The notes under the pieces: model-generated
Database searches by the model: none
What the model was told of the DNA's origin: nothing
What the model saw: only the letters and a program-made list of their open reading frames with translations
Assembly (NCBI GenBank): GCA_963663385.2
Contig: CAXXXD010000002.1
Location: forward strand, 320,001 to 384,000
Reading direction: 5' to 3'
From: Oceanispirochaeta sp.
Lineage (GTDB): Bacteria; Spirochaetota; Spirochaetia; DSM-2461
DNA length: 64,000 nt
Program-made: the position numbers and the translations under genes
Shown here: positions 16,770-49,452 of the stretch, one piece after another
How positions within the stretch are numbered: position 1 is the stretch's first letter
Layout: each line of letters opens with the position of its first letter

Positions 16770-18095
16770 TCAGCTGTACTTGTCCTGTTCCTTTCCATCC
16801 CAGAAAATCCGTATGGTGCCGGTGGATTCGGAAATAACCACCGATACCACCGGAGCAACCAGGGTAATCCCTCTGGCTGCGGCGTGTCTGGCTCCCAGAC
16901 CGGGGGGCAGGGCAGCCGTATTGGGAGGAACGGACAGGTAGGTCCCCACCGAGTGGATCTGACCGTCATTGCCGATAATAAAAGCGCCGTCGATTTTGGA
17001 GAATTCCTTGATGGTTTCACTGAGGCTGGGGTCCAGAATACTCCTGTTCCGGTGAGACATTCCCCCGAAGGGGTTTATTATCAGCTGTTTGCAGTAGGGC
17101 TCCACTTTTCTGTATTCACCGACAACAAATATTGTCCCCACCGGCTTACCTTCCCTGCCCTGACGGGCCAGTTCGGAAGCCAGATAAATAACGCGGCTCA
17201 GGATCTCCAGGTTAATCTTGTGGGGTATCCGGTAGCTCAATATGCGGCTTTCATTGTAAAGGTCCCAGGGGATGGATGTCAGAGAGATATTATGGGGCAT
17301 ATCATTGTGTTCGAATCCGGATATGCAGATAAGAATTTCTCCCTCCCGCAGCCTTTCCCGGGTCCAGAGCTCCCGGAGGACATCTTTTTCATGGTTTAAA
17401 TTCCCTTCTATCAGAAATACTTCATCAATCCGGGTTCCGACAGAGCTCAGCTGCTCCTCCATCTCCTTCAGGTTGGTAACCAGAGACAGGCGGTTGGATT
17501 TTAATTCCTTAAGCAGCTTGATTACCCGGGAGGGGATATTGGAAAAAAGCAGCACCTTTGATCTGGTGGAACTCTCCAGCAGACCCGCAATCTGCCGGAC
17601 AAGAGCGTGGGTCATCCTCTCCTTTTCCTGGGGGATATTCCTCTGCCTGAATTTCCCGGCGTCCTCAAGTATCCGGATAATCCCTTCGGGTGTATCGGCG
17701 CAGGCCAGTTTCTCCTGTATTCCCGGGACCTGCATAATGGCAGCCATTTCTGCAAGGTTCTTCAGATGATCATCCTCATGACAGACAAGAAGAACGACAA
17801 TATGTACTATCTCCCCCGATGAATCCCACTCCACACCCGTCCGGGAGTAACCGGCGCAGATAACTGGCTCCATTTCTGTCTGAATTTTGGCATGGGGAAA
17901 AGCAAGACCTTTTTCGGCAACCGTTGTGGCCGCCCTCTCCCTTTCCAGGCATTCCTCCAGAATGGAATTTTTCATTTCCTGAGAGGCGGAGGGCAGGCAG
18001 CTTTCTACCATCTCTCCAAGAACCTGCTCCTTATCCTCCGACTGAATTAATACAGCGCTCATTTTTGTGATCATGGGATCCTCCACTGTCTTCAC
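16770..18095 (-). CDS. PTS EIIA(Ntr/Fru)-fused diadenylate cyclase
   Basis: N-terminal ERERAATT..KGLAFPHAK (phospho-His); C-terminal QGREGKPVGTIFVVG, KEFSKIDGAF, GLGARHAAA, VISESTG. Confidence 0.88.
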   Translation of the reverse strand: MKTVEDPMITKMSAVLIQSEDKEQVLGEMVESCLPSASQEMKNSILEECLERERAATTVAEKGLAFPHAKIQTEMEPVICAGYSRTGVEWDSSGEIVHIVVLLVCHEDDHLKNLAEMAAIMQVPGIQEKLACADTPEGIIRILEDAGKFRQRNIPQEKERMTHALVRQIAGLLESSTRSKVLLFSNIPSRVIKLLKELKSNRLSLVTNLKEMEEQLSSVGTRIDEVFLIEGNLNHEKDVLRELWTRERLREGEILICISGFEHNDMPHNISLTSIPWDLYNESRILSYRIPHKINLEILSRVIYLASELARQGREGKPVGTIFVVGEYRKVEPYCKQLIINPFGGMSHRNRSILDPSLSETIKEFSKIDGAFIIGNDGQIHSVGTYLSVPPNTAALPPGLGARHAAARGITLVAPVVSVVISESTGTIRIFWDGKEQDKYS

Positions 18096-18163
18096 TGAAT
18101 TATAGTACTATTCTGCAGGACTTTCTTAAAAGCATATAAATGTTATAAATCCCTGTGGAAAGC

Positions 18164-18197
18164 TTCCTGTACAGCTATAAAAGTAGCTGTACAGGAA
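18164..18197. repeat. Perfect 14-bp inverted repeat in a divergent promoter region
   Basis: TTCCTGTACAGCTA-taaaag-TAGCTGTACAGGAA. Confidence 0.8.
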
Positions 18198-18260
18198 AAA
18201 GGGTGATTCAACTTTTTTTCTATGAGCCCCTATCCTATACTCTAAATCAGGAGAAGATCT

Positions 18261-19528
18261 ATGATCCCTTCAGTAAACCCTTTAGTTTTGAATTTAAAAG
18301 AATCGGCCACTCTGTTAATCAATAATCAGATTAAAGAGATGCGGAGTAAAGGGAAGGTGGTCTCTCATTTCGGCTTCGGCCAGGCGGCGTTTCCCGTACC
18401 CGGTCTGCTGGTTGATGCCCTCCGGGAGCATGCCGGGGAAAACTCCTACCTGCCGACGCAGGGACTCCTGGAGCTGCGGGAAGCCTTCTGTGGATTCCTG
18501 GACAGGGAATTCTCTCTGAAATATTCCCCCGGCGATATTTTTATCGGCCCCGGGAGCAAGGAACTGATTTTTCAGGTAAGTTATATGGTTGAAGGGGTAC
18601 TGCTGGTACCGGCCCCAGCTGGGTGAGCTACGGTCCCCAGGCGACCATCCGGGGTAAAAAACTCGTACCCATAGAAACGCAGCGGGAGAACGGGTACAAA
18701 CTGAAGCCCCGCGAACTGGACCAGGCCTGTCATACCCTGGTGCAGGAACAGAAACTCCTGATTCTGAATAATCCCAATAACCCTACAGACTGTGTGTATT
18801 CTGAAGAGGAACTGCGGGAGCTGGCAGATATCTGCAGGGCCTATAATGTGGTGGTTATTTCCGATGAAATCTATGCCATGATTGATTTTACCGGAAAAGG
18901 GCATACCAGCATTGCCTCGTATTATCCCGAGGGAACGATTATCTCGACCGGTCTTTCCAAGTCTTTTGCGGCGGGAGGATATCGGTTGGGAGTTATGGTC
19001 ATCCCCGATTCCCTGGGGGTTCTCAAGGGCGCTCTCAAATCCATAATAAGTGAAACATTCAGCGCTGTGAGCGCTCCCATACAGTATGCCGCCAGGGAAG
19101 CGTACAGCCGTTTTGATGAAATCCGGGATGAAATCAGACTGAATACGGAAATCTATCAGTATGCCAGCCGTTATCTTTGGAAACGGTTTCTGGATATGGA
19201 TCTTAACTGCCCCAAACCCCAGGGAGCCTTCTATCTGTTCCCCGACTTTGACAATTTCCGGGAAAAGCTCAGGAAGAAAGGAATCTTAACCGGGATCCAG
19301 CTCTCTAAGGAACTCCTTCAGAAGATCGGAGTAGCTTTTCTGCCCGGATCGGATTTCTATTTTCCCGCAACTAATCTGGGGGTCCGGGTCGCCTCGGTGG
19401 ACTTTGACGGGGTTTCAGTCCGGAAGAGCTGGCCTGAAGGGCCTGTTTCGGAGGAGAAAACAGGAGAACTGTTTCCCAGTCTGGTAAACGGCTGTAATTG
19501 TCTGGAGCAGTATTTGGAGGAGCTGTAA
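18261..19528 (+). pseudogene. Class I/II PLP aminotransferase, frameshifted at about 18613-18616
   Basis: ORFs 18261-18626 and 18623-19528 join to ...VPAPSWVSYGPQA if one C is added to GGCCCCAGC; SDEIY and GLSKSFAAGGYRLG present. Confidence 0.8.
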
Positions 19529-19581
19529 TTATTTATTAACGGATTACTACTTTGCGGATTGAAGGCGGCCTATATTCTACA

Positions 19582-19613
19582 GGACATTAAACCACCGTAT
19601 TTCTCTCGAGAAA
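19582..19613 (+). repeat. Left copy of a 32-bp direct repeat (att-like)
   Basis: GGACATTAAACCACCGTATTTCTCTCGAGAAA; 31/32 identical to 27135-27166. Confidence 0.9.
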
Positions 19614-19665
19614 AACGAAGAAAATACTTAAGACCGTTGTTTATATGGCTACTGATAAATAAAGG

Positions 19666-19701
19666 AAAAACCAGGAGGAACCATGAGTCGCGCTCCTCCT
19701 G
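19666..19701 (-). terminator. Terminator of the leftward islet operon
   Basis: CAGGAGGA...TCCTCCTG stem followed by GTTTTT on the minus strand. Confidence 0.6.
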
Positions 19702-19721
19702 TGAGGTCATGACTTGTCGTT

Positions 19722-20609
19722 TTAAAAGTAATCCGATATCTTATGCATTGCAGCTTCAATCGTTTTCTTCTCTGAATCGGTGAGAGTGCCGAAGGGTTTG
19801 CGGCAGTCGCCTATACTTAGCCCCAAAACGCTTAAACAGTACTTGGCGGCCGGAAAAACATTGATACTGACCAGAGTTTCGATAAACTCATTCAGTTTGT
19901 TCTGTAAAACCTGTGCTTGAGAAATTTCATTCTTATCAAAAGAGTCTTTGATTTCTCTGAGGAGTTTAGAGCAAATATTTACTGTGGTTCCAATGGTCGA
20001 TGAAGCGCCGGCATTCAGACTGTACAACCAAATTTCATCGAATCCATTAAATATCGTCTTTTTGGGAAAAGCCTGTTGGATCCGCTCCAGTTCAAAGAGA
20101 TTCATTGACGTATGCTTGATTCCAATAATCTTCTCATCTTCCAGGATACTGTTCCCCTTGGAAAATGATATTCCGGTAAACTGAGGAATATTGTAAACAA
20201 TAACGCCCAAATCAACCGAATCAATCACATCTCTATAGTACTGAAAGATTTCTTCCTGTTTATACTTGTAGTAAATCGGTGGAATCAGAGAAACCGCAGA
20301 TGCTCCATGTACTTCTGCATGTTTAGACAGAGCCACAGCCTCTCTTGTGCTTAACGAACCTGTATGAACAATAAAAGGAATATTACCGCCTGCTTCTTCT
20401 GCAACAATCTCCACTATCTTCATCCGTTCCTCTTTTTCCAGAAGAAGAGCCTCTCCCGATGATCCACAGCAGTAGATCCCTTCTACCCCATGATCCATCT
20501 CAAATCGAATTAACTCTCGCAGTTTATTTTCATCGAGCTCTCCTCCTGCTGTAGCAGGGGTAAAAAGGGCTGAATAGATCCCATCGTTTTTGATCGGCAG
20601 GCCTACCAT
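19722..20609 (-). CDS. DHDPS/N-acetylneuraminate-lyase family aldolase
   Basis: GSSGE, YNIPQFTG, GIKHTS (Schiff-base Lys); probable start ATG 20609. Confidence 0.85.
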   Translation of the reverse strand: MVGLPIKNDGIYSALFTPATAGGELDENKLRELIRFEMDHGVEGIYCCGSSGEALLLEKEERMKIVEIVAEEAGGNIPFIVHTGSLSTREAVALSKHAEVHGASAVSLIPPIYYKYKQEEIFQYYRDVIDSVDLGVIVYNIPQFTGISFSKGNSILEDEKIIGIKHTSMNLFELERIQQAFPKKTIFNGFDEIWLYSLNAGASSTIGTTVNICSKLLREIKDSFDKNEISQAQVLQNKLNEFIETLVSINVFPAAKYCLSVLGLSIGDCRKPFGTLTDSEKKTIEAAMHKISDYF

Positions 20610-21433
20610 GCGGTCCATCCTCCATCCATGATCAAATTGGAACCGGTCATGTATTTGGATGCATCAGATGCTAAAAAGATTATGGCACCGTTGTACTCAT
20701 CAGCTTGAGCCATACGACCGATAGGCATTCTGTTACAGTAGTTTTTCTGAAACTCTGGGTCTTGGGTTTCTCTCCAGACACCTGAAGGAGTAAATGTATT
20801 CACACGAATACCCTTCTTGCCCCAATAGGTTGCACAGTAACGGGTCAGATTATAAATTCCTGACTTTGCGGCAGAGTATGCAACAGGTTTTATGAAGGGA
20901 ATGCCTGTTTTTTCGGCCTTGTAAGCATAGATATCCTGAATGGGGCTTACTATACCGTAAATAGAACCGATATTAATGATTGATCCGGGTTTTCCGGCTT
21001 TTACCATACGGGCTCCAACGGCCTGGGTCATCAGAAATGTTCCTGTCAGGTTTGTTTCCACTACCTCCCGGAACACATCTTCAGGGAACTCTTCAAAAGG
21101 ACCGGAGACTTCGGGGGGGGCACTGGGCTGAGTATCAATGCCGGCATTGTTCACTAGAACATCGGGAACTCCCCATGTGTTCTCCAGATCATCCAGAAAG
21201 TTATTAATAGAGTCTTTCTTGGTGATGTCGACGGCATAACATTTGACATTTCCGCTGTTTAGAATTGTTTTCCCCAATATTTTTTCAGCTTTTTCGGTAT
21301 TGGCCGAACGTGAGAGAACAGCGACGTTAGCCCCCCTTTTCTGGAATTCCTTTACGAACTCCGCTCCGATCTGTCCAAGACCACCGGTAATCACAACAAT
21401 TTTTCCTGATACATCAAACAATTCATCTTTCAT
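20603..21433 (-). CDS. SDR-family oxidoreductase
   Basis: TGGLGQIG, VNNAG, GSIYG, YSAAK, NLIMDGGW. Confidence 0.92.
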   Translation of the reverse strand: MKDELFDVSGKIVVITGGLGQIGAEFVKEFQKRGANVAVLSRSANTEKAEKILGKTILNSGNVKCYAVDITKKDSINNFLDDLENTWGVPDVLVNNAGIDTQPSAPPEVSGPFEEFPEDVFREVVETNLTGTFLMTQAVGARMVKAGKPGSIINIGSIYGIVSPIQDIYAYKAEKTGIPFIKPVAYSAAKSGIYNLTRYCATYWGKKGIRVNTFTPSGVWRETQDPEFQKNYCNRMPIGRMAQADEYNGAIIFLASDASKYMTGSNLIMDGGWTAW

Positions 21434-21453
21434 AGTTATTAATCCCAATTATT

Positions 21454-22569
21454 TTATTCAGTAACACTTGCAAAAAGTGTCAAACTATCATAGTTCAAAT
21501 CGACTCCGAGCCCCGGACGGTCAGGAATATTCATAACACCGTTAACAGGAGTGGGTGCGTTCGTAAATGTTGTCTCCACCAGTTCGTTAAACATAAATAA
21601 ACTCTCTAGTATGACTCCATTGGAGAAGGCGGAAAGTAAATGCATATGAATAAAATCGAAACCATGGGGAGCGTAGGCAATATTGTATGCCTGTGCAAAG
21701 GAGACCATCTTGCGGCCTTCGGTAAAACCGCCGCACCGGGTGATGTCCGATTGGAGATAGTCTATACATCCGTTTGCGATAAGATCCCTGGCACCGTACC
21801 GGGTGTATTCGTGTTCACCCGATCCGCAGGGGAGAATCCCTGCAGCCCTGAACCGTGCCAATCCCGGAAGGTCATCCGCAAAAACGGGTTCTTCAAAGAA
21901 AACAATGTTACAGTCTCTCAGCTTATACGCCAGCCTCAGGGCAACCGCAGAAGTGAAAGCATTGTTAGCATCCAGCATAATTCCCATGTCCGGTCCGATG
22001 GCTTCACTAAGCGCCAGAATTCGCCGGGCATCTTCATTCGGATTCTTCCCGCCGTCTACACCGATTTTGACTTTAATGGTTTTGAAGCCGGCCTCTTTCA
22101 TTACCTTGGCCTCGGCAATCAGCTGATCAATGGTATAGGAAGTCCAGCCGCCGGTAGCATAGCAGTCGATCTGAGTCCGTCTTCCCCCCAGAAGTTTGTA
22201 AAGAGGCAGTTCGAACATCTTTCCCTTGATATCCCATAGTGCAATGTCCAGTGCACTGTAAGCACAGAATGCCAGCCCCTTGCGTCCAACACCTCTCATA
22301 TAGGCAAAAATATCGTCATAGATTGCTTCGGTTTCCAGGGGCGACCGGCCGATCAGTTTCGGTCCGATGGAAGAACGGATGAACTCACAGATAGCTTCTC
22401 CCCCTACCTCATGGTAGGTGAGTCCATAGCCATGGATTCCGTCATCGGTAGTGATATCCACTACAACATACCCGATGGTTTCCACCTTTCTCGTGGCATC
22501 GGAGAAATCGCCCTTGGCTTTTGTTTCGATCAGATACGTATCAATTTTTATAACTTTTGAATCGTGCAT
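21454..22569 (-). CDS. Mandelate-racemase-subgroup enolase (sugar-acid dehydratase)
   Basis: ALDIALWDIKGK, KVKIG (KxK), MLDAN, FEEP, GEHE, APH, RPGLG. Confidence 0.9.
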   Translation of the reverse strand: MHDSKVIKIDTYLIETKAKGDFSDATRKVETIGYVVVDITTDDGIHGYGLTYHEVGGEAICEFIRSSIGPKLIGRSPLETEAIYDDIFAYMRGVGRKGLAFCAYSALDIALWDIKGKMFELPLYKLLGGRRTQIDCYATGGWTSYTIDQLIAEAKVMKEAGFKTIKVKIGVDGGKNPNEDARRILALSEAIGPDMGIMLDANNAFTSAVALRLAYKLRDCNIVFFEEPVFADDLPGLARFRAAGILPCGSGEHEYTRYGARDLIANGCIDYLQSDITRCGGFTEGRKMVSFAQAYNIAYAPHGFDFIHMHLLSAFSNGVILESLFMFNELVETTFTNAPTPVNGVMNIPDRPGLGVDLNYDSLTLFASVTE

Positions 22570-22600
22570 GTTTTAACCTCTTTTATTCAGAAAATGATAA

Positions 22601-23434
22601 TTACCCTTTTACAGCTCCGGCTGTCATACCGGCAACCAGATGCTTTTGGGCAAAAAAGAACATAATACAGACCGGTATAATCGTAACGATCCCTCCCGCG
22701 GTCAGAAGATCCCACTGAACCCCCAGCTGTCCGATAAGATTTTTCAGAGCTATGGGAATGGTTCGGGTGGAAACATTGGTAAACATCATGGCAAACGTGT
22801 ACTCATTCCATGAGTTCATAAAAATATAGATTCCTGTGGCCATCAGACAGGGGGTCAAAATGGGAAGAATAATCTTTATAAAAGCCAACCCTCTGTTACA
22901 GCCGTCTATCAGAGCGGCTTCTTCCAGGGATATCGGCAGATCATTGATGAATCCGTTTAAAAGCCATACAGAAAAAGGAATCGTAAAAGTCGTGTATGAA
23001 AAAACAAGCGAGGCATGAGTGTAGAGGAGCCCCAGCTTTCTCATAATGGCGTATAGCGGTATTAGCAACAGCACGGTTGGAAACATGTTATTACTGAGAA
23101 ACATGAGCATTAAGGCTTTTCTACCGGCAAATCTGTACCTTGAGAAAGCATATGCAGCCAGTGTAGACACGGTCAGAGAGACAATTGAAGTCAACATAGC
23201 TACAATAAAACTGTTTTTCATGGCAGAAAAAAAGTTGACCGTTGTTGTAAACAACTTTGTATAAGATTCGAACGTTATCACTTTGGGCCAGTAGGTTGTG
23301 GCACCGTACAGTTCGTTTTCCGTTTTGATGGATGTCACAAATGTCCAGTAAAAGGGGAATACAAGAAAGAGCAAGATTATGATTAAAGGCAGAACGAATA
23401 AGAATACCTGCTTGATATCTAATTTGTTTTTCAT
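22601..23434 (-). CDS. Carbohydrate ABC transporter permease (MalG-like)
   Basis: LEEAALIDG EAA motif, SWNEY, GMTAGAVKG. Confidence 0.92.
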   Translation of the reverse strand: MKNKLDIKQVFLFVLPLIIILLFLVFPFYWTFVTSIKTENELYGATTYWPKVITFESYTKLFTTTVNFFSAMKNSFIVAMLTSIVSLTVSTLAAYAFSRYRFAGRKALMLMFLSNNMFPTVLLLIPLYAIMRKLGLLYTHASLVFSYTTFTIPFSVWLLNGFINDLPISLEEAALIDGCNRGLAFIKIILPILTPCLMATGIYIFMNSWNEYTFAMMFTNVSTRTIPIALKNLIGQLGVQWDLLTAGGIVTIIPVCIMFFFAQKHLVAGMTAGAVKG

Positions 23435-24306
23435 TTTGCATCCTTGAAAGTGGCTGAAAGATAAGGAATGGCAACCAGAGAAAGAAGAATGGCCAGAAAA
23501 ATAGCCATAGAAGAAGAATAGCCAAGATTCAAAGCATTTCCTTTATTATATACATAGACACTTAAGGTCTGTGTTGAATAAGCAGGTCCTCCCTGAGTCA
23601 TATTGAATATGACGTCCACCGAGTTGGCAACCCAGATAATTCTTAATAACAGAGTGACAAAAAGAGTATTTTTGATTGAAGGAATTGTCACATAAAACAG
23701 ACGTTGAATGGGGTTCACTCCATCCATTGCGGCTGCTTCATACAATTCATTCGGAACAACCTGCAGTGCCGCCAGCAGCATCAGAGCAAAGAAAGGAATT
23801 CCCTGCCAGATAATGGCAACAATAACACAAGGTAGAGAACTGGATGTCAGCGAAAGAAAGGGAATGTTTTCTTCAATAATATGGAGTTTCATCAGGATAT
23901 CGTTCAATACCCCGAAGTTTCCATCATAAATCCATCGCCACATTAAGCCGATTAAAACACCAGGAGTAACCCAGGGGATCATACTGACAGCTCTGATCAC
24001 GCCGCGCCCTGTAAAATGATGATTCAGCAGAACAGCCAAAAGAAAACCGAAAACGAATTGAAAACCCACTCCGAAGAATACCCAGAGTAATGTTCTCCAG
24101 AGAGCGCCCCAGAAGAGGGGGTCTTTAAACATATTGATATAGTTCATCAGCCCAATGAATCCGATTTCCTGGGGCCGCCTGAGGTCATAGCTCTGAAAGC
24201 TCATTATAATTGCATTCAGAATGGGAATAAAAACCACGCCAGCGATGATCAGAACAGCAGGAGCAACTAATACATAAGGCCATATATTTTTATTTGTGTT
24301 TTCCAC
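23431..24306 (-). CDS. Carbohydrate ABC transporter permease (MalF-like)
   Basis: FIGLMNY, LYEAAAMDG, TQGGP. Confidence 0.92.
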   Translation of the reverse strand: MENTNKNIWPYVLVAPAVLIIAGVVFIPILNAIIMSFQSYDLRRPQEIGFIGLMNYINMFKDPLFWGALWRTLLWVFFGVGFQFVFGFLLAVLLNHHFTGRGVIRAVSMIPWVTPGVLIGLMWRWIYDGNFGVLNDILMKLHIIEENIPFLSLTSSSLPCVIVAIIWQGIPFFALMLLAALQVVPNELYEAAAMDGVNPIQRLFYVTIPSIKNTLFVTLLLRIIWVANSVDVIFNMTQGGPAYSTQTLSVYVYNKGNALNLGYSSSMAIFLAILLSLVAIPYLSATFKDAK

Positions 24307-24327
24307 ATATGACTCCTAAAGAGTTTG

Positions 24328-24355
24328 AAAAGGAGCGGTCTACACGGACCGCTCC
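24328..24355 (-). terminator. Intra-operon hairpin after the SBP gene
   Basis: GGAGCGGTC...GACCGCTCC followed by TTTT on the minus strand. Confidence 0.6.
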
Positions 24356-24380
24356 GGTTGTTATTACAATTTTAAATAAG

Positions 24381-25634
24381 TTATCTGTAAAGTCCTTTAT
24401 CCAGAGTATCCATACACTCTGTAGCACTGATCCTTCCAGACAATGCCTGAGCAACAGTATTCGGCCAGATAACAGAGATCCACTCTGTCGTTGTATCAAG
24501 AATAGGCAGAATCCCGGCATAACCTTGACTGTCGATAGAAGCTTTCATAAAACGATTGTCTTGAAAGAATGCGCTTTGGGATACCGTTTTGCTGACTGGT
24601 ACATTTCCTGTTCCTTCGCACCACATTTTCTGCCCTTCTCCTGCAGCCAGATAGGAAATCCATTCAAATGCAGCATCTTTATTTTTACTGGTTTTGAAAA
24701 TAACTGTTTCAGTATCACCCATAGAGGTCCACTGACCGTCTCCTTTGGGAAAAGGGAAGGCTGAAACATCTTCACCCAGGGCGTCAATCATACCTTTCGA
24801 AGAGCCTGTATGGTGAATGGTCATGGCTGTAATACCAGATTTGAAGTTTGTAATGATCTCACTGAAACCGTCGTTAGGAGCTGTTGGAGGAACATAGCCG
24901 TTATTATAGATATCCATAAAATCCTGCATACCTTTTACAGATTCAGTACTTTTCAGGTTTTCAAAGCTTCCGCCCCTTCCGCTAATGAAACTCCCCCAGG
25001 GTTCCTGACCACCTTTTGCTCCTCTCATACCATAACCGTACACATCGGTTTTACCGTCACCATCGACGTCCATGGTACATCTTTTAACGGCTTCCAGAAA
25101 ATCATTGTATGTTGCAGGAACACTAATCCCTGCTTTTTCAAAAATAGAAGGTCTGTAATATACATAGAGAACCTGAATATTCCAGGGCATGACATAAATG
25201 TTCTCTGAATTCCCAGCCTTTTTCATGATATTGTAAATATTGTTGTCAATATCATCTTTTTTTGACCATTTGTTGATGTAAGGTGTCAGATCTTCCAGAA
25301 GATCATTGTTGGCAAACAGGGGTGTGGATGTTAGTTTCCAGGTTGCACAGTCAATATCCCCTCCACCCATCATGGTATTAAAAAGGTTTTCTGAATATGC
25401 ACCTCCGTCCCAGGGAACCTCTTCCCCGACTACCAGGATCCCTTTACCATTTTCGGCATTAAACTTTTCAATTATATCCTGCATTAGTTGTGAATAATCA
25501 GTGTTATCAGCCCAGTACCTGAACGTTATTATTGTTTTACCGGAATCCTCGCTCTTTTCCTGTTGTCCCCCAGAAAAAAGAACAGAAACAATCGATATGA
25601 GCAGGATGCTCAAAACCAAAATTTTTCTTTTCAT
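24381..25634 (-). CDS. Sugar ABC transporter substrate-binding protein
   Basis: Signal peptide ending FSGGQQE; YYRPSIFEKAG; DVDGDGKTDVYG; KDAAFEWISYL. Confidence 0.92.
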   Translation of the reverse strand: MKRKILVLSILLISIVSVLFSGGQQEKSEDSGKTIITFRYWADNTDYSQLMQDIIEKFNAENGKGILVVGEEVPWDGGAYSENLFNTMMGGGDIDCATWKLTSTPLFANNDLLEDLTPYINKWSKKDDIDNNIYNIMKKAGNSENIYVMPWNIQVLYVYYRPSIFEKAGISVPATYNDFLEAVKRCTMDVDGDGKTDVYGYGMRGAKGGQEPWGSFISGRGGSFENLKSTESVKGMQDFMDIYNNGYVPPTAPNDGFSEIITNFKSGITAMTIHHTGSSKGMIDALGEDVSAFPFPKGDGQWTSMGDTETVIFKTSKNKDAAFEWISYLAAGEGQKMWCEGTGNVPVSKTVSQSAFFQDNRFMKASIDSQGYAGILPILDTTTEWISVIWPNTVAQALSGRISATECMDTLDKGLYR

Positions 25635-25663
25635 AAATATCCTCCTATAAATTGCATGACAGC

Positions 25664-25680
25664 AGATTGTCGGACAATCT
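25664..25680. promoter_or_regulatory. FadR/GntR-type operator
   Basis: Perfect palindrome AGATTGTC-G-GACAATCT; the core TTGTCGGACAA recurs at 25841-25851. Confidence 0.7.
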
Positions 25681-25806
25681 TGTTATTACTATGATAACAT
25701 GTAAGATAGATCTGTCAATATATTTTGATATAATTACATAATATATTATTATGCAAATATTTAATTAAAAACTCTACTGGAGGTGCGGAATATTGTCAGG
25801 AAAATC

Positions 25807-25851
25807 TTGACGACTATAATGATTAGTGTTAAGATAATTTTTGTCGGACAA
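25807..25851 (+). promoter_or_regulatory. Sigma70-like promoter plus operator of the islet regulator
   Basis: TTGACG-N17-TAAGAT followed by TTGTCGGACAA. Confidence 0.6.
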
Positions 25852-25852
25852 T

Positions 25853-26575
25853 ATGATGAAATCAGTAAAAAGAGTGTCAGTTACAAAACAAATTGCAGAG
25901 TCTATAAAGGAATCGATCATTAGCGGTCAGTTCACAGTGGGAGAGAAGCTTCCAGCTGAAAACAAACTCTGCGAACTTCTTAAAGTCAGTCGTTCTTCCA
26001 TAAGAGAGGCCATGCAGGCCCTTCAGGTAGAAGGATATGTAGAACTGATTCCAGGTCGTGGAGCTTTCGTTCGAGATAACAATTCTCACGATTATGATAC
26101 AGTTAGAAAGTGGTTTATTGATTCGGTTCCGACACTTGAGGATTATACAGAAGTCAGAGAAGCCATTGAACCTCTTGCCATTAGAATGGCCATACAAAGA
26201 GGAACTGAAGAAGAACTGGAAAACCTTATTCAGATTCATAAAGAATTTATCGAAGCAGAAAAAGTGAAGAATGTAAGCCTTATGGCTAAACTGGATGAGA
26301 AGTTCCATACTCAGATTGTGTTAATGTCCCATAACTCTCTTTTAAATAAGATCAATACTCTTCTGGCCTCCGAGTTGAAAAAGTACCGGGTTATGTCTAT
26401 CTCTGTAAAAGAGCACTCGGACAATACCATCCGGGAACATGAACTGATCTGTGAAAGTATCAAAAACCGTGATGCCCGGCTGGCAACCTCGGCTATGCTG
26501 AAACATCTGGATATGACCCTATCGGATATGAACAAAGTTATTCATGGACAGCAGAAAGAAGACTATTCTCAGTAA
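25853..26575 (+). CDS. FadR/GntR-family regulator (FCD domain)
   Basis: GEKLPAENKLCELLKVSRSSIREAMQAL, GRGAFV, LDEKFH, EHELI. Confidence 0.93.
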   Translation: MMKSVKRVSVTKQIAESIKESIISGQFTVGEKLPAENKLCELLKVSRSSIREAMQALQVEGYVELIPGRGAFVRDNNSHDYDTVRKWFIDSVPTLEDYTEVREAIEPLAIRMAIQRGTEEELENLIQIHKEFIEAEKVKNVSLMAKLDEKFHTQIVLMSHNSLLNKINTLLASELKKYRVMSISVKEHSDNTIREHELICESIKNRDARLATSAMLKHLDMTLSDMNKVIHGQQKEDYSQ

Positions 26576-26606
26576 CTAATCTCATAACAATAAGGAATCT
26601 CTTTTT

Positions 26607-26999
26607 ATGAAGATCAATAAAGTGGATCATATGACTATAGTTGTAAAGAATTTAGAAGACACTAAAAGGTTTTATGGAGAACTTTTAGGGTTTGAATTTC
26701 TTGAAGCGGTAAAACTGGGAGATCACATCTGCCACTACTTTAAAATTCCCGGCGGACAGAAACTGGAACTGACAGAATACCTCTATCATACCGATGACGC
26801 TTCTTTTCAGCCAAATGAAAGGGGAATTGTCCGGCATCTCGCTTTCGAAGTTGATGATGTAAAGGGACTTGAAAAAATACTGGAAGATGCAGGATATAAG
26901 TTCCACTGTCCCGTCGGTCATACTCCCGAACTGGGTGTAAACAATGGTCTGGTTCATGATCCCAACGGGGTGGAGCTGGAATTTGTTGAGTATGTGTAA
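26607..26999 (+). CDS. VOC/glyoxalase-family protein
   Basis: VDHMTIVVKNLE..KRFYGELLGF, HLAFEVDD, DPNGVELEF. Confidence 0.9.
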   Translation: MKINKVDHMTIVVKNLEDTKRFYGELLGFEFLEAVKLGDHICHYFKIPGGQKLELTEYLYHTDDASFQPNERGIVRHLAFEVDDVKGLEKILEDAGYKFHCPVGHTPELGVNNGLVHDPNGVELEFVEYV

Positions 27000-27134
27000 A
27001 TGTGAAGAGGCATCCGGCTATCGGAACAACGACCAATCTTTTCTATGAAAAATGCAGAGAGCTTCGATGGAATTCTAAGTAGAGTGCTATGAGCTAGTCT
27101 CAGATGATTCAGACGGATACTGATATATCCTTTC

Positions 27135-27166
27135 GGACATTAAACCACCGTATTTCCCTCGAGAAA
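27135..27166 (+). repeat. Right copy of the 32-bp direct repeat; encodes the last 8 codons and stop of the GntR-LacI gene
   Basis: GGACATTAAACCACCGTATTTCCCTCGAGAAA. Confidence 0.9.
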
Positions 27167-28219
27167 GCTGGTTGGAACGATGCAGTTTTCCGGAGGATCT
27201 TTCGGTCCGTTCTTTATTATATTTATAAGAATGTCAACGCTGCGCCGGGCCAGGGATTCGAAATCCTGAGCAACCGTTGTCAGCTGCCATCTGGTGTCCG
27301 AAAGGTATTTCAGGTTATCGAATCCTACGAGCGAAAGGTCATGGGGAACTTCTATGCCCATAGATCCTGCGGCATTCAGAAGTCTGAAAGCAATCAGGTC
27401 GTTTACACAGAAGATGGCGGTAACTTTCTGTTTCAGAAGTTTTTTAAGAGTATGCCGGGCATCCTTTTCAGTCAGTACGGACTGCTCCTCCTCCCTTTCG
27501 GACGAAAAGCTTGTCACTACCAGCTCGGGATCCAGCGGAATCATGTTCCCTGTCAGGGCACGGCAGTATCCCTGATAGCGCTGACTGACCGCGTCGGAGT
27601 CCATCGCTCCCACAAAACCAATCTTTCTATGGGCTTTATCAACCAGAAACTGGACTGCCTCCAGTGCTCCCCGGAAGTTATCAGACTGCACAACAGGCAG
27701 GTTCAGCTCCTGGAGGTTCCTGTCCAGCAGAACCATCGGAAATCCGTCAATACTCATCCTGCTGAGGGTGTCCACATTCCTGTTATTTATAGGATAGATA
27801 ATAGCGCCTGCTACCTGATGCTGAGATATCTCGTCAAGAATGTGTTTTTCTCTCCGTGACGACTGTTCCGAGTAGTGAACACTGCATAAATACCCCTGTT
27901 CCCGGCAGCAGCGGAAGATATGATGAGTATACTGCTGCCCTCCGGAAAAGAAATCTATTTTGTGCGGCAGGAGAAGGGAAAGAATTTTCGAATCCCCGGG
28001 AGACTTCCTTCTGGGTTTCACAAAGGAGCCTTTTCCTTTCTGACGGTAGATGATGCCCCTGTGTTCCAGCTCTTTCAAGGCTCTGGTTACGGTGATGCGG
28101 GATGTATTGAACTCCTCCATCAGTTTCGCTTCAGAAGGAAGTTTTTCATCATCCTTGTACAGGTCTTTTTGAATCTGTTCCTGAAGACTGTTAATGATTA
28201 TCTGATAGGTCGGCAACAT
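27140..28219 (-). CDS. GntR-HTH / LacI-sensor hybrid regulator (AraR-type)
   Basis: KLPSEAKLMEEFNTSRITVTRAL...QKGKGSFV plus VVQSDNFRG, FCVNDLIA, VPHDLSLVGFD. Confidence 0.92.
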   Translation of the reverse strand: MLPTYQIIINSLQEQIQKDLYKDDEKLPSEAKLMEEFNTSRITVTRALKELEHRGIIYRQKGKGSFVKPRRKSPGDSKILSLLLPHKIDFFSGGQQYTHHIFRCCREQGYLCSVHYSEQSSRREKHILDEISQHQVAGAIIYPINNRNVDTLSRMSIDGFPMVLLDRNLQELNLPVVQSDNFRGALEAVQFLVDKAHRKIGFVGAMDSDAVSQRYQGYCRALTGNMIPLDPELVVTSFSSEREEEQSVLTEKDARHTLKKLLKQKVTAIFCVNDLIAFRLLNAAGSMGIEVPHDLSLVGFDNLKYLSDTRWQLTTVAQDFESLARRSVDILINIIKNGPKDPPENCIVPTSFLEGNTVV

Positions 28220-28331
28220 TATCGGCTCCTGTAATTTTTTACCATATCTTTTTCAGCTTGACAAGCTAAGTCCATAGGTTTTGTTTTAACATGATATATT
28301 AAGTATTCAATGTTATAATTGTTTATTTTTT

Positions 28332-28349
28332 AACTTGACATGTCAAGTT
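28332..28349. promoter_or_regulatory. Probable GntR-type operator overlapping the -35 box
   Basis: Perfect 18-bp palindrome AACTTGACATGTCAAGTT containing TTGACA; related AGCTTGACAAGCT at 28255-28267. Confidence 0.7.
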
Positions 28350-28398
28350 TGAGAGGTTTATTGTAAATAAAATGATTAAACCCAAATTGGAGGAAAGT

Positions 28399-29637
28399 AT
28401 GAAACGGATAGTATTATCCATCGTTCTAATGACTCTCGCAGCATTCGGCATTCTTTATGCGGGAGGTCAGGCAGAAGAAGCCGGTCCGACAAAACTCGTC
28501 GTATCTTCTCGTTTATATTCTCAACCGGGAGAGCAGCAGTTTCTGATCGATGAGATTTTTCCTGAATTCGAAGAGAAGTACAACTGTATTGTCATGTTTG
28601 AAATCCTTGAGGATGATCCCCTTCTCAAGAGGGCCCGTTTCCAGAAGGAATCCGGAAGGGTGAATACGGATGTCGTTATCGCTCATGCCGGTCGGATGGC
28701 AGAATGGATGGATGGCGGTTTTGTAACACCTCTTCCTGCTGATCAATGGAACGACCGGACATTCTCCAAAGCTTTTCAGGAAAGCACATCCAAAGGTGGT
28801 AAAACATATTTCGCTCCTGTCGGCGGTGATGTATATCTGATGCTTGCCAACAAAAAAGCTTTACCCTATCTTCCCGAAGGGGCTGATGTTCAGGATCTCA
28901 GCTGGGATGAGTATGTCCAGTGGGCAGTTAATATAGCGGACGGGGAAGGCGAAGGAAAAGCCGCCGTCACAGGTGTTCCCATGAAATCCCTGATTTATAT
29001 GTATGGCGGTATGTTTCTCTCCTTTGGAGGAGAATTCCCTGTTATCAACTCTGCGGGTGCCGTAAAGGGCTGGGAGCTGTTATCCAAAATGCAGAATGCC
29101 TATACTCCGACAGTCAATACATATGACAATGTTTCCTCCCCCATGAAAACAGGAGAAGCCTGGCTGACAGTCGCCCATATGGTCCGCTGCGGGGAAGCCT
29201 ACCGGTCCAACCCTTCCGCCTATGTTCTGGCTCCGGCTCCCCGGGGACCGGAAGGTATCGGTTCCATCGCCGGAACCAGCGGTTTCGCCGTAGTAGACGG
29301 GGCTCCCAATGCAGAACTGGCCATGAAATTCGTTGAATATATGACAGAACCCGGAATGGCTGTAAAAATCGCCCGCGGCACAGGCGGATTCATTCCCCCA
29401 ATCGATGAAGCCATAGATCAGCTCGGTGATTCTCTGGAAGATGAAATTATCGCCAAGGGTATCTATGTTCTGAAAAACGGCGTTGTCTCCGGTGTCCCCG
29501 GAGGAGATTATACATCCTGGGGTGCTGTAAAACAGGTTTACGATGACGCTTTTCAGGAGCTGATCCTGAACAGAGGCGCTGTGGACAAGGCTTATCTGGA
29601 TGAGGCTCAGGCAAAACTGGAAGCCTTGAAAAAATAA
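28399..29637 (+). CDS. Sugar ABC transporter substrate-binding protein
   Basis: GGAGG SD; signal peptide ...LYAGGQAE; SBP-family C-terminal ELAMKFVEYM. Confidence 0.9.
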   Translation: MKRIVLSIVLMTLAAFGILYAGGQAEEAGPTKLVVSSRLYSQPGEQQFLIDEIFPEFEEKYNCIVMFEILEDDPLLKRARFQKESGRVNTDVVIAHAGRMAEWMDGGFVTPLPADQWNDRTFSKAFQESTSKGGKTYFAPVGGDVYLMLANKKALPYLPEGADVQDLSWDEYVQWAVNIADGEGEGKAAVTGVPMKSLIYMYGGMFLSFGGEFPVINSAGAVKGWELLSKMQNAYTPTVNTYDNVSSPMKTGEAWLTVAHMVRCGEAYRSNPSAYVLAPAPRGPEGIGSIAGTSGFAVVDGAPNAELAMKFVEYMTEPGMAVKIARGTGGFIPPIDEAIDQLGDSLEDEIIAKGIYVLKNGVVSGVPGGDYTSWGAVKQVYDDAFQELILNRGAVDKAYLDEAQAKLEALKK

Positions 29638-31719: not shown

Positions 31720-32808
31720 ATGGCAGTTCTTGAATTAAACGATATAGCAAAAAAATATAACAGAAAGGTCTGGGGGGTCCGGAAGATGGATCTGGAAGTG
31801 GAGGATAAGGAGTTTATCGTATTCCTCGGACCTTCAGGCTGCGGGAAAACGACATGTATGAGGATGATAGCCGGTCTTGAAGAAACAACACGCGGTTCCA
31901 TTGTCCTGGATGGACGGGATATTACGGATCTGGCCCCGAGGGATAGGAATATCTCCATGGTATTTCAGAATTACGCTATCTGGCCTCACATGAACGTATT
32001 CGATAATATCGCTTTTTCCCTGAAACTGAAGGGGGAGGCAAAAGAGAATATTAAAAAGACCGTTGAAGAGGTTGCCCGGATGGTCAAGATTGATCAGCTT
32101 CTGGACCGGTTCCCCGGTCAGATGTCCGGCGGTCAGCAGCAGCGTGTAGCACTGGCCAGGGCCCTGGCCGTCAAGCCAAAGCTTTTTCTCATGGATGAAC
32201 CATTATCCAATCTGGATGCCAAATTAAGAGTTGTTATGAGAACCGAATTGAAGGCTATACACCAGAGAACCGGTGCAACCAGTATTTTCGTTACCCACGA
32301 CCAGTCTGAAGCCATGAGTATGGCAGACCGGATTGTAATAATGAAAGACGGGGAGATAATACAGGTAGGCACCCCCGAGGATGTTTATTTCAGAAGCGCG
32401 GACATGTTTGTCGCCGGATTTATAGGGACTCCTCCAACGAACTTTTTCCCTGTATCCCTTAACAGAACAGAGGATAAGCCCGCCCTTGGTCATCCTCATT
32501 TCATTCTCCCCATGGAAAAGGATGTTTTTGCATCTCTGACGGAGGGAGGCCGGGAGGAATTGATTCTCGGAGTGCGTCCGGAGGATTTTATCATGGTTTC
32601 CCGGGACGAGAGCATTCTTGATGCGGAAGTCCTGGTGACAGAGCCCCAGGGTTCCCATCAGATACTTGCTGTGGAAATAGAGAATCAGATAGTCAAAATT
32701 GTTCTTTCATCGGATATAAAACTGAAGCCGGGAGATCCCGTCCATTTCCGTTTTGATGAAAAGCGCCTTCACTTCTTCGATAAAGACACAGAGAAGCGGA
32801 TTATATGA
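31720..32808 (+). CDS. ABC ATPase (MalK/UgpC family)
   Basis: GPSGCGKTT, MSGGQQQRVAL, MDEPLSNLDAKLR, VTHDQ. Confidence 0.96.
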   Translation: MAVLELNDIAKKYNRKVWGVRKMDLEVEDKEFIVFLGPSGCGKTTCMRMIAGLEETTRGSIVLDGRDITDLAPRDRNISMVFQNYAIWPHMNVFDNIAFSLKLKGEAKENIKKTVEEVARMVKIDQLLDRFPGQMSGGQQQRVALARALAVKPKLFLMDEPLSNLDAKLRVVMRTELKAIHQRTGATSIFVTHDQSEAMSMADRIVIMKDGEIIQVGTPEDVYFRSADMFVAGFIGTPPTNFFPVSLNRTEDKPALGHPHFILPMEKDVFASLTEGGREELILGVRPEDFIMVSRDESILDAEVLVTEPQGSHQILAVEIENQIVKIVLSSDIKLKPGDPVHFRFDEKRLHFFDKDTEKRII

Positions 32809-34817
32809 ATCTGAACTTAACAGAAGAGCTCTATTCTCTCTTTCCTGATCCGAAATGGGCAACCCTTGTAAAAAAGGCGGCTCTCTACCAGGATAAACGG
32901 GATGATGCCGGTCATGCAGCCACAGTTGCTTACTGGGCTTCGGTTCTGCTGGACCTTCCCGGGTACAAGGCAGACAGGGAAACGGTCCTGGTTGCGGCTT
33001 TACTGCATGATGTGGGCTGGAGTTGTGTTAAACAGGAGGACCTGCTTACGCTCTTCCGGGGCTTAGCCGATCCGGAAGAACGGGAACTGCGGCTTCTGCA
33101 TGAAAAGGAAGGGGCCGAACTGGCTTCTTCCCTTATGGAAGAGGCCGGGTACGGGGCCTCCTTTATCCGGGCAGTCGCAGAACTGGTAGGAGGCCACGAT
33201 ACGCGAAAGGGTTATCTGTCTCCTGAAGACGGTCTGCTTCGCGATGCGGACAGCCTCTGGATGGTTACAGAGGAGGGCTTTCAGGCAGATCTGCGGCGGC
33301 GGGATCTCAGCCCTGAGAAATGGGCGTCCCGGCTGCGGAAAAGGTTTCTCCAGAGGGGGGCTTTCTATACGGAGGAAGCCCGGATATGGGGACTCCGCCG
33401 GTTGTCCCGGTTGGAAAAGGGGCGCCGGATAGGGCCTCCCGGAGTTATAGAAAAATCCCGGGTTCTCATCTGCCATTACCGGGTAGGCTGGACGGATGGG
33501 GTCTCGCTGGAAATAGAAAAACGTCAGAGTATTCTGGAGGAAATGGGGTTTCAGGTTTCCCTTCTGGCCGGTCCCGGAAGCCGGGGGGCGGATTACACAA
33601 TCCCCGATCTGGATTTTGATACCCCCGAGGCCCGTAAAATAAGCAGGAATGCTTTTGGCGGTTTAAAAGATTTTTCCAGCGAAGCAGAGCTTATCGAAGT
33701 TATTAATTGCCTGTCCGATAAAATCGAGGATGAACTGAGCAGGATTATGGATGATCTGGATCCGGATTTTATTCTGCTTCACAATATCTTCTCTCATGGA
33801 CGGCATATTGCCGCCGCCAGGGCTTTCTGTCGCTGTCTGGTTCGGTATAAGCGACCGTCTCTGGCAACTCATCATGACTTTTTCTGGGAGAGGGATGATT
33901 TCAGAAATCCTTCAGGACCGATGGTTGAGGGGTTTCTTGACCAGTATGTTCCACCCGTCATTCCGGGTATGAAGCATGCCGTAATAAACTCTCTGGCGGC
34001 CCGGAAGCTGTTAAACCGGTCGGGGATAGATGCTCTGATATTTCCGGATACCCTGGACTTTACTCTTACCCGCTGGAAAAAAGATGAATACAACAGCCAT
34101 CTGCTTGAGGATTTCGGTCTGAGAGCCGATGATATCTTTATCCTTCAGGCTACCCGAATCGTCCGGCGGAAAGGGATCGAACTGATTCCTCCTCTGATTG
34201 CCCTGCTGAACAGGGATAAGTATCTGAATCAGCTGCGGGGGAAAACCCTTTACAACGGGAAGCAGGTTACCGGGAAATCCCGTTTTGTCTTTCTGATTGC
34301 CGGTTATGCGGAAAAAGAGGCGGAGGACTATCGGGATGAACTGGAAGATCTGATGGTCCGGAAAGCAGTGCCCTACAGGTTCCTGCGATCTCAGATCGCT
34401 TCTGAAAGGAGCGAGAGGGAAGGGTGTAAAACCTACTCCCTTTTTGATACGTATCCTTATGCCGATCTTGTTTCCTATCCGAGTATATACGAAGGGTGGG
34501 GGAATCAATTTATTGAGGCCGTTTTTGCAGAAAAACCTGTTATTGTGCATGAATACCCGGTTTTTCTGTCGGATATTAAACCCAAGGGGTATCAGATAAT
34601 CTCTCTCGGCAGCGACGCGCAACCCGGTGCTGATAATCTGTATACCCTTGATGATGAGCTGATGGACAGGACCTGTCAGGCTATTGTGAACTGGCTCCTT
34701 TCTCCGGAAACAGCTGAAAAACTGGAACGGAACTTTCAGCTGGCGGAAAAGAATAACTCTTATGACTATTTGAGATCCCTCATGAAGCAGAGTATGGAAC
34801 ACTATGAAGATTATTGA
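32805..34817 (+). CDS. HD-domain / GT4-like glycosyltransferase (MggS-like) fusion
   Basis: About aa 1-200: H...LLHDVGW...HE.EGA...HD...DAD. About aa 215-670: HYRVGWTDGVSLEIEK, HHDFFWER, LQATRIVRRKGIE, YPSIYEGWGNQFIEA. Confidence 0.8.
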   Translation: MNLNLTEELYSLFPDPKWATLVKKAALYQDKRDDAGHAATVAYWASVLLDLPGYKADRETVLVAALLHDVGWSCVKQEDLLTLFRGLADPEERELRLLHEKEGAELASSLMEEAGYGASFIRAVAELVGGHDTRKGYLSPEDGLLRDADSLWMVTEEGFQADLRRRDLSPEKWASRLRKRFLQRGAFYTEEARIWGLRRLSRLEKGRRIGPPGVIEKSRVLICHYRVGWTDGVSLEIEKRQSILEEMGFQVSLLAGPGSRGADYTIPDLDFDTPEARKISRNAFGGLKDFSSEAELIEVINCLSDKIEDELSRIMDDLDPDFILLHNIFSHGRHIAAARAFCRCLVRYKRPSLATHHDFFWERDDFRNPSGPMVEGFLDQYVPPVIPGMKHAVINSLAARKLLNRSGIDALIFPDTLDFTLTRWKKDEYNSHLLEDFGLRADDIFILQATRIVRRKGIELIPPLIALLNRDKYLNQLRGKTLYNGKQVTGKSRFVFLIAGYAEKEAEDYRDELEDLMVRKAVPYRFLRSQIASERSEREGCKTYSLFDTYPYADLVSYPSIYEGWGNQFIEAVFAEKPVIVHEYPVFLSDIKPKGYQIISLGSDAQPGADNLYTLDDELMDRTCQAIVNWLLSPETAEKLERNFQLAEKNNSYDYLRSLMKQSMEHYEDY

Positions 34818-48736: not shown

Positions 48737-49363
48737 CTACCGAATCTGCTCCATGGTCATCATAAGGAATCCGGAAAAAGCCGCATTGCCTGGAGAAAGC
48801 GACGGATCCACATGGCCTTTCATTCCGTTGATAATATCCCTGTAACGCCTGTAAAAATCATAGCTGGGCTGCGGCCTGTAAACCAGATTTTCAATCTCAA
48901 ATACGGAAATAACGTTTTTTACCGTAGTCGGTTTAATAAAAACGTCCCTGTCCGGACGAAGGTAGGCGGGGATAACTGTCATAAGAGTCCATTTGGCCAG
49001 TTTCCCCATTCTGAGAATACCCAGAAACTGATTGAATCCTTTTTCTTCATCCATGTAGAGCATTTCATGAAGCCCGTTTATCATCTGTTCCAGTTCATTG
49101 CTGTTAAGGGAGCGCGTATAATCCCGGAATCTGGGCTTTTCGAAAACCGAAACCATGGAGGAGGCGCTGACGAATTTCGTCAGGTTTTCGCTGAGTTCCC
49201 CGGTGCGGGAAAAGCTGTCTTCAGAAAACTGTTCCGCCGCCCGGGGGATCAGTTTGTCCATCCTGTGCTTTTTTCCGATGGCAACCATTTCCGGATCGGC
49301 AAACCCGCCGGGGTATCGATGGAAAAATGCGGCCTCTGCCGCTTTAAGTTTTTCAATGTTCAT
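48737..49363 (-). CDS. Conserved hypothetical protein
   Basis: MNIEKLKAAEAAFFHRYPGGF.DPEM...; GGAGAGG SD; natural composition. Confidence 0.7.
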   Translation of the reverse strand: MNIEKLKAAEAAFFHRYPGGFADPEMVAIGKKHRMDKLIPRAAEQFSEDSFSRTGELSENLTKFVSASSMVSVFEKPRFRDYTRSLNSNELEQMINGLHEMLYMDEEKGFNQFLGILRMGKLAKWTLMTVIPAYLRPDRDVFIKPTTVKNVISVFEIENLVYRPQPSYDFYRRYRDIINGMKGHVDPSLSPGNAAFSGFLMMTMEQIR

Positions 49364-49452
49364 AGTCAGCGCCTCTCCTGCCGGCAGTATAGAGACCGGT
49401 AAGAGATCAGTATACTGCCCATTCAGGAAAAATGTCTATTTACGATTGCGTT

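Follow-up and report, generated by a model that had tools for sequence, protein, structure and literature searches.

Integrase-borne islands can occupy the 3' ends of protein-coding genes, as e14 does in icd, and integrase-less derivatives of such islands are known as well, among them the cis-mobilizable elements (CIMEs). In the available part of 10.64898/2026.01.13.699239, insertions of this class duplicate the end of the target gene, keep the gene intact and have a precise empty site. We describe here a 7.5-kb islet of eight genes that shares these three properties, inserted behind a GntR-LacI-type regulator gene of Oceanispirochaeta sp. (assembly GCA_963663385.2, contig CAXXXD010000002.1, positions 320,001 to 384,000; this whole stretch of 64,000 nucleotides is the window, and positions below are counted from its first letter). 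Unlike the integrase-borne islands, it has no integrase or vestige of one, its cargo is not tied to one target, and repeat length differs from case to case.

In anatomy, the islet is a variant of insertion with long target duplication that lacks restriction-modification (RM) cargo. As set out in the available text of PMC2853133, such events involve an insert of less than 20 kb (here, a period of 7,553 bp), a unique direct repeat of more than 30 bp over a stop codon (here, 31 of 32 bases, just above the threshold), a relative with a single-copy empty site, the absence of any mobility gene and a variable repeat length, all of which recur at our locus. The same text ties the process to RM systems and calls part of the proposed cycle experimentally unshown. 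The present case differs in its catabolic cargo, which includes no restriction, modification or nuclease gene, and in being one of eight candidate cases in one genome, with a candidate repeat-less parent allele. Because the same scar, with repeats of 43-1817 bp, is found eight times around catabolic-type cargo in this genome, restriction genes in the insert are not required. Our literature search returned no description of the pattern for catabolic cargo or for this genus, in a body of text outside which most subscription papers lay; the supplements of PMC2853133 may hold non-RM cases. The way in which inserts without a recombinase come to have long target duplications has been an open question since 2000, and the value of the case is a series of insertions with candidate parent alleles that bears on this unexplained process.

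Two recombination processes offer further comparisons. In Escherichia coli conjugation with a laboratory plasmid substrate homologous to the target on one side only, 56 of 60 clones had a duplicated stretch of the target (109-950 bp in the 14 sequenced), which was attributed to recircularisation of the donor followed by a single crossover (PMC3240628, available text). One-sided homology, the lack of an integrase and a duplication of variable length covering part of the target gene are shared with our locus, whose repeat of 32-43 bp is shorter than all 14 of those. Homology-facilitated illegitimate recombination, in the accessible parts of PMC3240628 and PMC5361080, pairs a homologous anchor on one side with 3-10 bp of microhomology on the other; the counterpart here is a candidate 5-base word in one depth-2 contig of a stand-in donor. 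That process usually deletes recipient DNA, whereas here none was deleted and 32 bases were duplicated. Tandem duplications made by transformation between insertion sequence (IS) copies are a different product (PMC3784515, as far as available).

A strain-variable islet between two copies of a gene end

The islet is bracketed by a 32-base direct repeat at 19582-19613 and 27135-27166, with a period of 7,553 bp. The copies agree at 31 of 32 positions (the sole mismatch is T19604 versus C27157), as stated in the initial annotation, which was made from the letters of the window. A looser leftward extension, starting at 19571 and 27124, matches at 38 of 43 positions. Throughout the 5.31-Mb genome, searched on both strands with up to seven mismatches, the 32-mer has just these two copies, so that it is neither a chance match nor, as the annotation had considered, a dispersed repeat. 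A 20-base part of it had no match in metagenome_contigs or in viral_contigs, and no phage or element with the site was found there. The right copy comprises the last eight codons of the regulator gene, its stop and five downstream bases (FLEGNTVV*), and the left copy is non-coding and would read FLERNTVV* in a closed frame; both translations were reproduced. Around either copy we identified inverted repeats of 5-6 bases only, although real attachment cores can be equally weak.

The right flank is present in 13 public sequencing runs, with no RNA data set listed among them, and we compared contigs from seven of these (X2, X6-X9, X11 and X12) with the window. The empty site that the annotation had predicted, an aminotransferase gene convergent with the regulator gene and a single repeat copy between them, is present in two populations. 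In run X6 (study P3), a 2179-nt contig about 99% identical to this locus (9+13 other letters) joins position 19581 to 27135, and in X8 (study P4) a 963-nt contig at about 94% (36+23 other letters) does the same. The joint skips 7553 bases, and 22 letters fit either side. This allele was seen again in X9, from the same sample as X8. It loses no recipient DNA, and the occupied form duplicates 32 bases. These single-copy alleles support insertion at a protein-coding gene's 3' end, and the islet is confirmed as a real, strain-variable insertion. Nothing in X11 or X12 matched the left junction, which is no proof of absence, and X7 provided short pieces only.

The polarity assigned earlier did not hold. 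The left copy had been taken for the original gene end on the grounds that Arg is usual at this C-terminal position, but seven of the eight regulator orthologues with an intact C-terminus have Gly. Both empty alleles match the right copy beyond the 22 shared letters and therefore carry its C, the Gly letter. Given Gly in both empty alleles and in 7/8 orthologues, the Arg argument fails and Gly is ancestral; the T of the left copy is most easily explained as a subsequent substitution in non-coding sequence.

Occupied alleles were also recovered. One X2 contig spans the whole stretch with 0 differences, and X2 is possibly the window's own source. X8 also yielded a contig of 7838 nt that extends over 19877-27713, has 436 other letters (94.4%, comparable to the flank at 184 in 3152) and joins the islet to the same regulator gene, so that a sister population is occupied at this site. 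A 598-nt contig of X8, at depth 2, matches 19470-19515, continues with 274 other letters and resumes with 19609-19742. It has no piece over 19571-19608, although the same comparison detected the 43-base repeat in other contigs, and the five letters with which it resumes equal 27162-27166, inside the regulator gene. From these thin data, a single 598-base contig at depth 2, we suggest that the sister population has the islet here but not the left copy of the repeat.

The description of the islet as integrase-less proved accurate. No recombinase lies in or near it: PF00589 (tyrosine recombinase) has nine matches genome-wide, the nearest 1.18 Mb away, and the serine recombinase families PF00239 and PF07508 and the IS1634 family (NF033559) have none in the genome. 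When 11 open reading frames (ORFs) from the host's loci for recombinases and ISs were used as tblastn queries, the islet gave no sign of a remnant. Two of the nine PF00589 matches flank dprA and, from this context, are XerC/D-like; one is a 408-aa enzyme; and the rest belong to an element, present in three copies, that encodes two recombinases, a primase and ParA and has ends unlike the 32-base repeat.

A multi-copy element of about 9 kb lies at L125:2400-11700 (G000:C4, G000 being the genome analysed here) and at the ends of C2 and C3. Its copies are 99.5-99.9% identical and encode two tyrosine recombinases, a DnaG-type primase, ParA and an HTH gene. The element looks active; the adjoining ORFs have an Rhs-like motif.

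Sibling insertions and the cassette in other genomes

We scanned the genome for same-strand repeat pairs of 28-2000 bp lying 2-80 kb apart and obtained 167 pairs, 14 of them unique in the genome. Four of these 14 have one copy with a stop codon and the other in an intergenic region (null mean 0.22, P=0.0002, 5000 placements). By inspection, eight (this locus included) bracket recombinase-free cargo. The remaining six (C1:22240, C1:24713, C1:73693, C1:205141, C2:236678 and C3:740067) were dropped as paralogue pieces, similar terminators, IS-rich low-GC stretches or ambiguous pairs. The seven sibling loci counted besides this one lie at C1:140819, C1:372300, C2:514001, C2:689117, C3:128845, C4:418246 and C4:1077009. 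The eight repeats measure 43, 71, 92, 96, 144, 208, 926 and 1817 bp, with periods, in the same order, of 7553, 14827, 6583, 8105, 33482, 9154, 7478 and 7764 bp. Seven enclose regulator, transporter and catabolic genes and one encloses signalling genes; cargo GC is below that of both flanks in five of the eight. The inner ends, compared for 13 pairs of an earlier list without the 926- and 1817-bp cases, share nothing beyond chance (best alignment scores <=10.5 against a 99th-percentile null of 10, 325 pairs), and the same alignments revealed no terminal inverted repeats inside the direct repeats.

The longest repeat, 1817 bp (L124:3010-12588; G000:C4:1077009-1086587), duplicates two whole genes, for KDPG aldolase and PfkB kinase, around a TRAP transporter cluster of 36% GC. 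Identity between its copies is 96-100% in the middle but falls to 73-93% at either end, a pattern that fits a crossover between diverged alleles. The left copy of the 208-bp pair contains the tail of the last gene of the very islet that the pair brackets. In the 926-bp pair (L123:3118-11521; G000:C2:689117-697520), the duplicated piece is the 5' portion of a recQ-like gene. Some 3 kb of the cargo, with a diguanylate cyclase-Enzyme I fusion, is 98% identical to congener G008, a similarity that points to recent transfer between species, and another 3.3 kb has a second copy, 97% identical, about 12 kb from it. The 144-bp pair (G000:C1:372300-405924) duplicates a whole tRNA-Leu(CAG) gene and terminator around 33.5 kb of sugar-use clusters, and no integrase was found on that contig.

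Events differ freely in repeat length, also where they share a target gene. The duplicated piece of an E1 dehydrogenase gene is 71 bp in our genome, a 117-bp relic in congener G004 and 544 bp (99.8% identical) in congener G003, each with different cargo. The G003 case (L091:4218-4761 and L092; G003:C6:31217-31760 and ~49296-49839) is the freshest seen: the end of the E1 gene and its terminator are repeated around 18 kb of low-GC catabolic genes (36-45% GC), and none of the 15 cargo proteins scanned matched a mobility family. Bracketing repeats occur in two of nine congener stretches at the E1 locus, in none of nine at a gatZ-like locus and in none of seven at a permease locus; at the latter two loci the congeners are without these cargoes. 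The C3:128845 region has too little congener match to judge. Because repeat lengths spread so widely, up to 1.8 kb, with varying targets and cargo, we consider recombination a better fit than attachment sites. In practice, such repeats should not be taken for the attachment sites of decayed mobile elements.

All eight islet genes occur in the same order in two of ten congeners, G003 and G002. The G003 cassette has 83% nucleotide identity over 19666-26999, ending at the VOC gene stop, and that of G002 has 58-88% protein identity. Neither congener has a close orthologue of the regulator, and the cassette has other neighbours, at unrelated sites. Six to eight of the cassette genes are found on four further spirochaete contigs. 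No long near-identical repeat brackets the cassette in seven regions, which include those of G003, G002 and the four contigs (five largest repeat families per region). Cargo and target are thus not a fixed pair, since in congeners the cassette sits at unrelated sites without a repeat.

An empty site could not be traced in other species: nine relatives have an orthologue of the target regulator and seven of them show the downstream gene, which is the aminotransferase in none. Conversely, the six congener aminotransferase loci examined all have other neighbours, and the pairing of the two genes is particular to this species group. A search for the regulator in metagenome_contigs gave 131 pattern matches, of which 0 were confirmed.

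Origin of the duplication

We propose that the 32-base duplication was made by general recombination and not by an integrase, through repeat-less carrier DNA that closed at a microhomology and entered an empty chromosome by a single crossover, an account that we consider evenly poised between being right and wrong. The module would first have landed a few bases behind the regulator stop in some lineage, without repeats. A piece of carrier DNA would then have been joined end to end at a 5-base microhomology, found to the left of the module and 24 bases before the regulator stop, giving a 7,553-bp circle with the last 32 bases of the gene. One RecA-type crossover within the shared 22-32 bases could have placed this circle in the empty chromosome and duplicated the gene end; equivalently, a long homologous anchor in the regulator gene and a microhomology join on the sister chromosome would serve. 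The non-coding left copy would later have gained its one substitution. Once in place, the islet might be lost by recombination between the repeats or spread between strains by crossovers in the flanks, with no movement of its own. No targeting to gene ends is needed, because insertions that leave the gene whole are those that survive, as argued also in the available text of PMC2853133. The genome encodes ComEC and DprA.

Several points weigh against this account. Thirty-two bases make a short substrate for a RecA crossover, which in E. coli needs at least about 23-27 bp, and the repeat here (32 bases, or 32-43 bp) is below the 109-950 bp of the E. coli experiment. The repeat-less occupied allele comes from one depth-2 contig of one run and was not seen in X9; 19743-19876 is uncovered, so the connection of the 598-nt contig to the X8 islet contig is indirect. 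Equally, the allele seen in the window could be the source of that one, and the five letters would then mark no more than a deletion end point; a word of five bases is also common (three occurrences in the regulator gene). The X8 population, about 5.6% diverged, is at best a stand-in for the donor. No circle joint appeared among 15 of 35 joints listed, a comparison of contigs only that does not show absence. ComEC and DprA are widespread and no proof of competence. For the sibling loci, the enrichment test was post hoc with simple ORF calls, the grouping of eight of the 14 pairs is our own reading, and empty sites were seen as gene adjacency in other species and not as precise joints.

The empty allele and the candidate repeat-less parent allele are in public data, and this makes a model of circle formation and crossover testable. 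We speculate further, with considerable doubt, that recombinase-free gain of this kind may be the main route by which these spirochaetes acquire catabolic modules: chromosome pieces from a relative would close at microhomologies and cross over into gene ends, with their size set by a putative DNA carrier. Six of the eight insertions have periods of 6.6-9.2 kb, and the gene transfer agent of Brachyspira packs 7.5 kb. Against such a carrier, operon size alone could give this range, and the terminase and capsid families (Terminase_6N, Phage_capsid) had no match in the genome. PF02534 has one marginal partial match there. If the idea is true, the locus keeps both parents and the joint of one event, which would explain a long target duplication without a restriction enzyme.

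Alternatively, the islet may have arrived in one step with a true target duplication, a course of events that we regard as unlikely. Linear foreign DNA would have been captured during break repair, or through an unequal illegitimate join between sisters, copying 32-43 host bases, and the left copy of X8 would have been replaced later. The anatomy agrees with that of insertion with long target duplication, and PMC2853133 (available text) suggests double-strand breakage in that process; no short-homology crossover is needed, and the near-perfect 544-bp repeat around low-GC cargo in G003 looks as if both of its copies were host-derived. However, capture does not explain the diverged ends of the 1817-bp pair or the gene tail in the left copy of the 208-bp pair, it requires an extra event for the X8 allele, the cargo has no nuclease, and Ku has 0 matches in the genome.

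Less probable again is the reading of the initial annotation, a site-specific integrative element at the 3' end of the regulator gene whose recombinase was lost or is supplied in trans. The attL/attR-like geometry, the precise empty site, the gene kept whole and an identity block of 32 bp, within the usual range, all suit it, and 6% of att-delimited islands are without integrase vestiges (10.64898/2026.01.13.699239, available part). But the islet holds no remnant and, with largest gaps of 206, 135 and 108 bp, no room for one; the inverted repeats around the copies are short, though those of real cores can be as weak; and the host's own tyrosine recombinases are the dprA pair, the 408-aa enzyme and the three primase/ParA copies with dissimilar ends. 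The cassette also stands without such a repeat in G003, G002 and the four other spirochaete contigs, within the five repeat families considered per region, and the sister population apparently has a repeat-less allele. Each of the seven sibling loci would need its own lost integrase, and repeats of 544, 926 and 1817 bp are not attachment cores.

It is very improbable that the cassette is old here, the left copy being a relic of a collapsed tandem duplication and the empty alleles deletions between the repeats. The observed joint is just what recombination between the two repeats would leave, and the islet is present in the 5.6%-diverged population while the closest relative, X6 (about 99% identical here), is empty. 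The empty allele is old, however, because it occurs in two lineages, with spacers that depart from the window's at several positions; islet GC lies under both flanks; the cassette is elsewhere in congeners; and at least two rearrangements per locus would be required at many loci. Transposases of the IS1634/IS1549 type make long, variable target repeats. Such an enzyme acting on a non-autonomous unit, or an assembly artefact, is nonetheless largely refuted and scarcely credible, as no NF033559 match, terminal inverted repeat or shared end exists, the X2 contig spans the stretch (with the caveat on its source given above) and X8 independently joins the islet to the regulator gene. IS1630 is mentioned in the available text of PMC2853133.

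Islet genes, flanks and neighbouring features

The islet is 92% coding, and all eight of its genes fall in catabolic, transport or regulator families (Table 1). Family searches of the eight genes revealed no ATPase, kinase, nuclease, recombinase, restriction or modification gene. Only the aldolase reaches a curated family cut-off, and barely. The module is predicted from these families to import and degrade a sugar acid. We tentatively suggest a pathway, which we hold to be somewhat more probably wrong than right in its details, in which the binding protein and two permeases work with an ATPase encoded elsewhere and the substrate is oxidised by the short-chain dehydrogenase, dehydrated by the enolase and cleaved by the NanA-like aldolase to pyruvate and an aldehyde, with no kinase step. 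The earlier description of a self-contained regulator/ABC/enzyme set is borne out for the regulator, permeases, binding protein and enzymes; the ABC set is not fully self-contained, because the islet has no ATPase gene. Overall, the islet is an ordinary accessory sugar-acid module.

Table 1. Positions of the repeat copies, islet genes and flanking genes in the window
Feature	Position	Strand	Remarks
Class I/II aminotransferase, left flank, frameshifted near 18612-18626 in this strain	18261..19528	+	One extra base in X6 and X8 contigs; one ORF of 422-450 aa in 6 congeners
Left copy of direct repeat	19582..19613 (loosely from 19571)		Non-coding relic of regulator 3' end, one substitution at 19604; empty alleles match window up to 19581
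AGAAA, 5-base word closing left copy	19609..19613		Identical to 27162-27166; candidate microhomology of illegitimate join
Hairpin, 8-bp stem, then T run; likely terminator of catabolic operon	19672..19701	-	Read by eye
DHDPS/N-acetylneuraminate-lyase-family aldolase, 298 aa	19722..20618	-	PF00701; NF003164 282.9 bits vs cut-off 281; TIGR00683 230.5 vs 382; best PDB matches are NanA
Short-chain dehydrogenase (SDR), start likely 21433	20603..21448	-	PF13561/PF00106; none of best 25 NCBIfam families at cut-off
Mandelate-racemase-subgroup enolase, likely acid-sugar dehydratase, 371 aa	21454..22569	-	PF13378/PF02746; best NCBIfam TalGalacDh 212 vs cut-off 500; PDB matches
Sugar ABC permease, 277 aa	22601..23434	-	PF00528
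Sugar ABC permease, 291 aa	23431..24306	-	PF00528
Sugar-binding protein, 417 aa	24381..25634	-	PF01547/PF13416
GntR/FadR-type regulator, 244 aa, divergent from operon	25841..26575	+	PF00392+PF07729
VOC/glyoxalase-fold protein, 130 aa	26607..26999	+	PF00903
Right copy of direct repeat	27135..27166 (loosely from 27124)		Final 8 codons and stop of regulator gene plus next 5 bases
Target gene: GntR-HTH + LacI-type sugar-binding regulator, 359 aa, intact	27140..28219	-	PF00392+PF13377

The compositional shift claimed for the islet was seen in part. Its GC is 42.2%, lower than in the 7.5-kb flanks (52.1% left, 48.8% right; genome 46.5%), and the best left change point, 19450, is near the left copy. 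In contrast, this GC is only at the 10th percentile of the genome's 7.5-kb windows, the right change point, 28600, lies 1.4 kb past the right copy, and by tetranucleotide distance (89th percentile, against 88th for the left flank) the islet is no more unusual than its neighbour.

The target regulator belongs to the ABC/glycosyltransferase cluster on its right, and this linkage is kept in relatives. On the left, the X2 contig agrees with the window at the aminotransferase frameshift, and those of X6 and X8 are one base longer near 18612; the gene is likely a recent pseudogene. No tRNA or tmRNA gene was detected in the whole window, and no Rfam match in 18000-29000.

Elsewhere in the genome, a second dprA-like gene was matched in two pieces at G000:C2:1333187-1333799 and is possibly frameshifted, and a CRISPR-like array of 32-base repeats lies at G000:C1:340200-344800. 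Two domain fusions were identified in the window. A PTS EIIA domain is fused to a DisA-type diadenylate cyclase domain at 16770-18095 (-). At 32805-34817 (+), an HD domain is fused to a glycosyltransferase resembling mannosylglucosylglycerate synthase; this protein is about 670 aa long in two congeners, but five relatives at a greater distance have a version of about 460 aa that lacks the additional N-terminal part.

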